A stretch of DNA of 64,000 nt from the NCBI RefSeq assembly GCF_056712565.1, contig NZ_CM160072.1; one strand, written 5' to 3'. Below the pieces are notes generated by a model. The model had not been told where the DNA came from and ran no database searches. It saw nothing but the letters and a program-made list of their open reading frames with translations. Below are positions 12,141 through 12,602 of the stretch, one piece after another (the stretch's first letter is position 1; the number at the start of each line of letters is the position of its first letter). The position numbers and the translations under genes are program-made.

Positions 12141-12602
12141 CTTAAAAACCTATCCCGTCTAACACAAAGTGCATACATTACCACGACAAAACGGGGGATT
12201 CGCGGCCTTCTGACAGAATGTTGCAATCTTCTGCTGACAAAGCGAGCAACGTACTGGTGAAGAAAGTGCGTTATCTCAAAGATGTGTGCAAGATCACAAA
12301 AATGATGAACGGGAAGCTAATTTATTCCTGGCTTAAATGACCATGTGGTGAGTTTTTTCTCTTAATTATAAGATAACGAAGAGAATATATTTCATAACTT
12401 TTATTTATAATAAAGGTTGATAATTAAAGGCCTGTATTTTATGTGGGTAATTATTTAAATAAGAGAAACGTTTCGCTGGTAATCAAACAAAAAAATATTT
12501 GCGCAAAGTATTTCCTTTGTCATAAAAATAATACTTCCAGACACTATGAAGTTGTGAAACATAATGTTAACTTCTCCATACTTTGGATAAGGAAATACAT
12601 AC

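Follow-up and report, generated by a model that had tools for sequence, protein, structure and literature searches.

The ddlA-iraP spacer of Escherichia coli as a likely scar of gene loss joined to an ancestral iraP control region, with a putative RbsR-type operator in place of a Pho box

Genes and composition of the ddlA-iraP spacer

The window analysed here is a stretch of 64,000 nucleotides (nt) from contig NZ_CM160072.1 (RefSeq assembly GCF_056712565.1). The element under study is the 462-base pair (bp) spacer at positions 12141-12602, which separates the divergent genes ddlA (end at 12140) and iraP (ATG at 12603). This spacer is likely to be a composite: a scar left by gene loss in Escherichia, joined to an ancestral iraP control region that carries two promoters and a putative operator of the RbsR type. 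The genes in the immediate neighbourhood are as follows:

11046-12140, minus strand: ddlA coding sequence, D-alanine--D-alanine ligase A (open reading frame [ORF] and RefSeq annotation)
12603-12863, plus strand: iraP coding sequence, 86 amino acids (aa), PF10796 (ORF, annotation and Pfam)
12964-14379: phoA, with psiF as the next gene

The spacer is 100% identical to that of E. coli ATCC 11775; compared with the spacers of 5,426 complete E. coli genomes, the identity is 95-99% in nearly every case. In the curated MG1655 record, the gap likewise measures 462 bp and contains no annotated feature. A preliminary description, made from the window sequence, had called this region of about 460 bp unusually long and AT-rich. 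Its extent is exact, but the first adjective is overstated: the 50 kb around it contain nine divergent gene pairs with spacers of 119-525 bp, of which ddlA-iraP is the second longest, that is, long for the neighbourhood yet not exceptional. The second adjective holds for the right-hand 262 bp (12341-12602), which have a 27% GC content compared to 51% for the whole window, but not for the left-hand 200 bp (12141-12340), at 42.5%. Besides the tract upstream of iraP, a single 260-bp stretch in the window is comparably AT-rich (848-1189, 260-bp GC content of 27% or less); its mapped coordinates place it towards the tauD/hemB end of the window.

Probable loss of genes between ddlA and iraP

To place the spacer in its family, 80 iraP loci were collected from the Enterobacteriaceae (one genome per species) and ddlA, iraP and phoA were located in each; tblastn searches, blastn searches with the spacer and an alignment of upstream regions were run over 82 loci or sequences. 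As determined by tblastn, a ddlA-iraP distance of approximately 460 bp is found only in Escherichia; the distance is approximately 600 bp in three Citrobacter species and mostly 1.6-2.4 kb elsewhere. Most loci carry intervening genes on the iraP strand, encoding an extensin-like protein (PF06904), an MdtG-like transporter of the major facilitator superfamily (MFS), or both. The matches of the Escherichia spacer to other loci fall into three pieces, at spacer positions 1-82, 154-180 and approximately 245-462. It is on the basis of this three-piece homology, together with the genes that intervene elsewhere, that we interpret the spacer as a scar that has kept an orphan CRP element and is joined to an ancestral region. 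We consider it likely, for this composite explanation taken as a whole, that both intervening genes were deleted in Escherichia and that the resulting scar now adjoins the ancestral region that controls iraP. The outer two parts are listed below:

12141-12222, minus strand: presumed ddlA promoter and 5' untranslated region, 82 bp adjoining ddlA (function presumed from blastn conservation)
12388-12602, plus strand: ancestral AT-rich iraP upstream region, approximately 215 bp with a 26.5% GC content, homologous to the MFS-iraP intergenic region elsewhere

Under this explanation, the first part would be the ddlA-proximal segment, conserved beside ddlA in many genera. By blastn, spacer positions 1-82 have a partial or full match beside ddlA in approximately 44 of the 82 loci, with full-length matches mainly in Escherichia, Citrobacter and Salmonella. 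The middle part would be the scar of the extensin-like and MFS gene losses, which kept the CRP promoter element of the transporter, and the third the ancestral AT-rich control region (about 12388-12602) with its two promoters; this region is AT-rich in other genera as well. No coding remnants of the extensin-like or MFS genes were identified using relaxed tblastn searches and local nucleotide alignments against shuffled controls; in these alignments, only the CRP-site segment and the iraP-proximal segment exceed background.

The three Citrobacter species with the shorter distance (L009 [2097-2201], L010 and L011) also lack both intervening genes. In these, the CRP element is directly followed by a 34-aa ORF, MSVAGIAALGSTFALFRSTRRGRRRSSLDVQIVL, with a hydrophobic start and an arginine-rich tail, for which no Pfam or NCBIfam match was found. 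Four further loci (L018, L019, L074 and L080, from C. koseri, Intestinirhabdus, Klebsiella oxytoca and K. grimontii) have no ddlA, extensin-like or MFS gene within 2.5 kb upstream of iraP, which indicates that rearrangements on this side of the gene have been recurrent in the family. On the other side of the gene, phoA is missing downstream of iraP in Salmonella and approximately 20 other loci.

A probable orphan CRP element in the left half of the spacer

Three features overlap in the left half of the spacer:

12276-12330, plus strand: orphan promoter-like element, consisting of a CRP site, then TGATGAACGGGAAG, then a -10-like TAATTT at 12318-12323
12283-12298: CRP site TGTGTGCAAGATCACA (K-12 allele TGTGCGCAAGATCACA), from consensus match and Footprint-seq
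12218-12420, plus strand: 'hypothetical protein' WP_001300163.1 of the Prokaryotic Genome Annotation Pipeline (PGAP), 67 aa with a TTG start in K-12, a pseudogene in the window strain

The CRP site has one mismatch to TGTGA-N6-TCACA. In a 2026 preprint, Footprint-seq identified a previously undescribed CRP site, 'ddlA / iraP', with an in vitro dissociation constant of 1.2 nM; this value belongs to the K-12 allele, which differs from that of the window strain by one base in the left half of the site. The element, comprising the CRP site followed by TGATGA(A/C)(C/T)GGG(A/G)AG, is found in 40 loci from Enterobacter, Lelliottia, Leclercia, Salmonella, Citrobacter and Escherichia, where it lies between the extensin-like and MFS genes or at the corresponding position, approximately 130 bp before the MFS start codon. 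Within Escherichia, it is better conserved than its flanks.

The spacing of the element, with the -10-like hexamer approximately 20 nt after TCACA, would fit a class II CRP promoter. It resembles such promoters in having a consensus-like, high-affinity site and a -10-like hexamer placed for a centre at about -40.5, and differs from them in that the gene served in other genera is gone in Escherichia. The element, orphaned under this explanation, points toward iraP. A weaker possibility is that the orphan CRP promoter at about 12330 gives rise to a cyclic AMP-dependent iraP transcript with a leader of approximately 270 nt.

The PGAP annotation raises the alternative that the left half of the spacer instead encodes a real small protein (67 aa in K-12), as the same feature is annotated at the match in thousands of E. 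coli genomes. In the window strain, however, the frame is interrupted by an in-frame stop and a frameshift; in K-12, it relies on a TTG start, and it is not maintained in other Escherichia lineages. The ORFs of the spacer have no Pfam or NCBIfam match, the PGAP ORF is absent from the curated MG1655 record, and no plus-strand start was found upstream of it in the Cappable-seq data described below. It also crosses both the CRP site and the promoter element. Given the disrupted frame, the lack of a family match, start site and curated MG1655 entry, and the overlap with the CRP site, this ORF is probably a propagated annotation artefact, and we give the small-protein explanation next to no credence.

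Promoters and conserved blocks upstream of iraP

Transcription start sites were taken from the plus-strand entries of a published Cappable-seq list for MG1655 (U00096.2). Coordinates were transferred to the window using the iraP ATG (400610 in U00096.2, 401386 in NC_000913.3), the phoA GTG (400971) and a FITBAR-predicted site (400463) as three independent anchors, and the mapping was also checked against the phoA start and MG1655. Plus-strand starts are located at 400543 (score of 298), 400561 (score of 3) and 400587 (score of 168), with none between 398889 and 400543. The two strong starts correspond to window positions 12536 and 12580, giving leaders of 67 and 23 nt, respectively. The published data show two strong starts before the iraP ATG, and not a single proximal one. 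The features assigned around these starts, and one earlier prediction, are as follows:

12433-12455: predicted NagC site (FITBAR, 2010 regulon-prediction paper, graded 'strong', K-12 400463)
12498-12503, plus strand: candidate -35 of the distal promoter P2, TTTGCG (TTAACA in Citrobacter)
12521-12536, plus strand: core of P2, with a putative -10 of CATAAA or AAAAAT, an AT-rich discriminator and a start at 12536 (Cappable-seq 400543)
12565-12580, plus strand: proximal promoter P1, with an extended -10 TGtTAACTT at 12565-12573 and a start at A 12580 (Cappable-seq 400587)
12587-12598, plus strand: conserved ribosome-binding region TAAGGAAATAC (alignment conservation)

The P2 start follows an A/T block, CATAAAAATAATACTT, that supplies both the -10 and a very AT-rich stretch before the start. 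In the alignment of 82 sequences, conservation in the 230 bp before iraP is concentrated in four peaks: an operator block (discussed below), the P2 core, the P1 -10 and the ribosome-binding region. P2 contains the conserved block AAAAATA(A/C)TACTT, and the TG.TAAC.T of P1 is approximately 90% conserved. Three of the peaks are delimited as follows:

12462-12478: AGAGAAACGTTTCGCTG, 70-90% conserved per base
12524-12536: AAAAATAATACTT
12565-12574: TG.TAAC.TC

In a consensus scan, terminators were absent and promoter matches did not rise above background; the top plus-strand promoter candidate, with a -10 CATAAT at 12560-12565, is incompatible with both measured starts. The predicted NagC site was rejected as an account of the AT-rich tract, as it falls in the tract's most variable part, its 30-mer being highly variable in E. 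coli and unconserved beyond Escherichia. A scan of positions 11900-13100 against Rfam (E ≤ 1) produced two chance eukaryotic matches and no RNA family, and folding of the 67-nt leader with the iraP start gave nothing unusual (z = -0.4). The suggestion of extra promoter or leader regulation therefore stands with respect to promoters, in view of the two strong starts, the CRP site and the RbsR-type operator, but not with respect to a structured leader or an Rfam family. In Salmonella (L012 and L015, 2495-2761), iraP itself may start two codons earlier (MVMKNL...), which would give 88 rather than 86 aa.

The AT-rich tract could also be read as mainly a silencing platform for H-NS-type nucleoid proteins, or as foreign DNA, in which the conserved motifs are incidental. 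Its 27% GC content against 51% for the window, which places it among the two most AT-rich stretches, is in keeping with this, and the nearby PhoB site of phoA is flagged in a published table as lying inside an H-NS-bound region. However, the tract is ancestral and occupies the same place across genera, which does not suggest recent import; it contains two strong starts in growing cells; and its conservation is found in discrete blocks rather than being diffuse. H-NS binding could coexist with the promoters but would leave the conserved blocks unexplained, and we judge this account improbable.

Guanosine tetraphosphate (ppGpp) with DksA has been described as directly activating iraP transcription in phosphate starvation (Bougdour and Gottesman 2007 and Girard et al. 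2018, as cited in other papers). Phosphate starvation would then induce iraP through ppGpp and DksA, by a route other than PhoB. The promoter described there belongs to the gene and region studied here; the RbsR-type operator and the CRP site are absent from the description of this promoter in those parts of the literature that were searched. The AT-rich stretch that separates the -10 of the distal promoter from its start agrees with how the ppGpp/DksA-activated iraP promoter has been described. PhoP is reported to activate iraP in Salmonella (Tu et al. 2006); that case resembles the present one in that a lineage-specific input has been added to the AT-rich region upstream of iraP, although both the regulator and the motif are different.

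The Pho box-like motif

The preliminary description had pointed to a motif resembling one half of a Pho box, at about 12514-12527, as possible additional promoter or leader regulation of iraP, and had noted a canonical Pho box between iraP and phoA. The sites concerned are as follows:

12517-12530, plus strand: the motif TTGTCATAAAAATA, with its half-site at 12517-12523, overlapping the spacer and -10 of P2
12884-12901, plus strand: the true phoA Pho box CTGTCATAAAGTTGTCAC (sequence match, matrix, and chromatin immunoprecipitation sequencing [ChIP-seq] peak 401676)

The canonical box is present where it was described, and the motif is present as well, 3 bp further to the right than stated. As the P2 start maps to 12536, the motif is part of the distal core promoter, in which it covers the spacer and -10; relative to the P1 start (12580), it lies at about -63 to -46.

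The window was scanned (approximately 128,000 positions) with a PhoB position matrix built from 59 sites of a published ChIP-seq study. Its three best matches fall on sites already known, those of phoB and phoA and the one inside phoB, indicating that the matrix works; the two overlapping Pho boxes of phoB and the intragenic site reported by ChIP-seq (28299-28327 and 28482-28499) thereby acted as positive controls within the window. The 18-mer at the motif scores 8.0 bits and ranks 48th, with 47 other window positions scoring equally or better. Among the 59 real sites, the median is 15.2 bits, the 10th percentile 10.6 and the minimum 6.8, and only two fall below 8.0. The likeness to one half of a Pho box is genuine insofar as the first repeat matches at 6 of 7 bases (+10.0 bits), but the second (ATAATAC) matches at 3 of 7 (-4.3 bits); because this contribution is negative, the whole score derives from the first repeat, and the full 18-mer is not a credible site. 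YTGTCAT occurs 29 times in the window, compared to 17 ± 4 times in shuffled sequences.

With the Pho boxes of phoA, pstS and phoB, the motif shares a single 7-bp repeat, TTGTCAT, the A-rich 4-bp spacer that comes after it, and a location in the phosphate-responsive iraP-phoA neighbourhood. It differs from them in several respects: there are no two 7-bp direct repeats 11 bp apart, the score is low, the motif is situated on the P2 spacer and -10 and does not replace a -35, it is unconserved, and it has no ChIP-seq peak. Among the 82 upstream sequences, YTGTCAT is found in E. coli proper only (L001-L005), and G12519 of the TGTCA is kept in approximately 10%. PhoB ChIP-seq in low phosphate shows a single peak in the neighbourhood (401676, or approximately 12893 in the window), which corresponds to the phoA box; no peak is listed upstream of iraP, although a weak shoulder 375 bp from the phoA peak is possible.

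A model of direct PhoB control of iraP, exerted through the TTGTCAT half-site by itself or together with a degenerate second repeat, can draw on several observations in addition to the well-matched first repeat. Low phosphate induces iraP approximately 4-fold, phoB mutants contain less iraP RNA, by a factor of 2.3 in K-12 (RNA sequencing; log2 of 1.2, p = 4e-6) and of 2.4 in EDL933 (microarray), and the weakest real ChIP-seq sites reach down to 6.8 bits. On the other side are a second repeat of -4.3 bits and a total below that of 57 of the 59 real sites, the lack of a separate peak in the published ChIP-seq table, the restriction of the motif to E. coli proper, its overlap with the P2 -10, and the assignment of the iraP phosphate response to ppGpp in published work. 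With only a single repeat, a poor matrix score, no conservation, no ChIP-seq peak and the wrong position, the motif is a chance likeness to a Pho repeat, present but no more than chance, and Pho-box input to the iraP upstream region is not supported; direct PhoB control is, in our estimation, very improbable. A small PhoB dependence of iraP nevertheless exists. As no PhoB site was detected upstream, this effect is most simply and probably indirect, possibly through ppGpp.

A putative RbsR-type operator upstream of both promoters

The most conserved non-coding element upstream of iraP in the alignment is not the Pho-like motif but a palindrome of the kind bound by RbsR:

12460-12479 (core 12462-12477): putative RbsR-type (LacI-family) palindromic operator TAAGAGAAACGTTTCGCTGG, from identity to rbsO and conservation

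The natural ribose operator, rbsO, is TCAGCGAAACGTTTCGCTGA. The iraP site, likewise a palindrome with a central CG, is identical to it in 15 of the 16 core bases and in 17 of the full 20; its core, AGAGAAACGTTTCGCT, has one mismatch to the rbsO palindrome AGCGAAACGTTTCGCT, and none of 100 shuffles of the window contained as close a match to the rbsO core. The right half-site, GTTTCGCT, is identical to that of rbsO and invariant among genera. Of the 82 iraP loci, 51 contain a single exact copy of the 13-mer RAAACGTTTCGCT, always with this placement and orientation, and 59 have a best 16-mer with no more than three mismatches, centred 115-133 nt before the ATG. Among the 5,426 E. coli genomes, 5,331 (98%) have an exact copy of the 30-mer surrounding the operator; the distal promoter core is exact in 4,619, and a 30-mer close by in 206 (4%).

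The rbsO palindrome is itself closely tied to ribose genes. In 5,378 E. coli genomes, rbsO is located 6 nt before rbsD. Among 120 metagenome occurrences of the exact palindrome, 47 immediately precede an rbsD homologue (56-99% identity), another 7 are beside rbsA, rbsB or LacI-type genes, and the remaining 66 have no adjacent rbs gene; judging from these sequences, the palindrome is characteristic of ribose operons in taxa distant from E. coli as well. Four metagenome contigs (L101, L131, L147 and L149) carry it three to four times each, at a spacing of approximately 60-800 bp (approximately 300 bp in two of them), which points to a repeat element or an array that has nothing to do with rbsD.

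The centre of the iraP operator is approximately 66 bp before the distal start and approximately 110 bp before the proximal start, upstream of both promoters, and it adjoins an A-tract (12485-12500), a possible upstream promoter element. In the rbsDACBK operon, rbsO is a site of repression that overlaps both the promoter and the leader of rbsD, a geometry that sets it apart from the iraP site in spite of the shared central-CG palindrome, 15 of 16 core bases and identical right half. With the operator at about -66 and -110, repression by occlusion does not fit at iraP. Another LacI-family protein, Cra (FruR), activates from operators upstream of the -35. It is the working analogy for a positive effect of RbsR, as each involves a LacI-type dimer site upstream of the -35; the half-sites differ, being TGAAAC for Cra and GCGAAAC here.

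The palindrome could be real but bound by another member of the LacI family, such as PurR, Cra or an uncharacterised paralogue. The central AAACGTTT is common to several LacI-family operators, and the left half-site differs among genera (AGAGAAAC, AGAAAAAC and AGCAAAAC), both of which would suit such a protein. PurR boxes need GCAAAC and Cra boxes TGAAAC, however, and neither is present; the invariant right half GTTTCGCT is the exact rbsO half-site, and the exact rbsO palindrome accompanies rbs genes in distant taxa. Binding by a different LacI-family protein thus appears unlikely. The operator is apparently an undescribed, putative new site of a well-known kind. No mechanistic link of RbsR to iraP, yaiB or ddlA was found in the literature searched, which excluded the primary iraP promoter papers and the primary RbsR SELEX (systematic evolution of ligands by exponential enrichment) paper.

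A proposed link between RbsR, IraP and RpoS

That RbsR binds the operator upstream of iraP is, in our estimate, about as likely as not. A further step, which we offer tentatively and regard as somewhat doubtful, is that binding at 12460-12479 directly and measurably stimulates iraP transcription without ribose, while ribose leads to less IraP and faster RpoS degradation. In this model, RbsR would occupy the predicted operator when ribose is absent and raise iraP transcription; when ribose is present, IraP would fall, RssB would be freed and RpoS would be degraded faster. As the operator overlaps neither core promoter, RbsR would act positively or as an anti-silencer, and not as a simple repressor.

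The direction of the proposed effect comes from Salmonella, in which rbsR mutants have less RpoS. In a 2024 study, a single screen yielded both rbsR and iraP mutants, and RpoS protein was reduced in each. An rpoS promoter fusion was as active without RbsR as with it; the study places the requirement for RbsR at a post-transcriptional level, by a mechanism that its authors describe as unknown. MC4100, a laboratory strain in common use, is mutated in rbsR, and an RbsR input to iraP could therefore have escaped notice in that background.

Several points weigh against the interpretation given here. RbsR is best known as a repressor, and the direction of its effect on iraP is inferred solely from the Salmonella phenotype. 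Approximately 23 of the 82 loci have no operator, and the operator may already be listed in literature beyond that searched. The distal start falls on a T, and the assignment of the P2 hexamers is uncertain by 2-3 nt. No start is seen at the orphan CRP promoter in the Cappable-seq data, which are from glucose-grown cells only; because CRP is expected to be inactive in glucose, this neither supports nor excludes activity. The composite explanation also leaves the 2.3- to 2.4-fold drop of iraP RNA in phoB mutants unaccounted for. Finally, the title of a preprint ascribes the effect of ribose on RpoS to rbsD mRNA acting on translation, a route that could alone explain the rbsR phenotype without iraP.

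Significance of the locus

Should the composite explanation hold, the ddlA-iraP spacer is a clean case of gene loss stranding a high-affinity transcription factor site between genes, and it gives an evolutionary account of one of the recently reported 'novel' intergenic CRP sites of E. coli. IraP is a key controller of RpoS stability, and the operator makes the question of how RbsR affects RpoS directly testable. If the proposed effect of RbsR is true, it could explain, wholly or in part, the drop of RpoS in Salmonella rbsR mutants, in parallel to the rbsD mRNA effect, and it would constitute a link, conserved in the Enterobacteriaceae, between a sugar repressor and the proteolysis of sigma-S.

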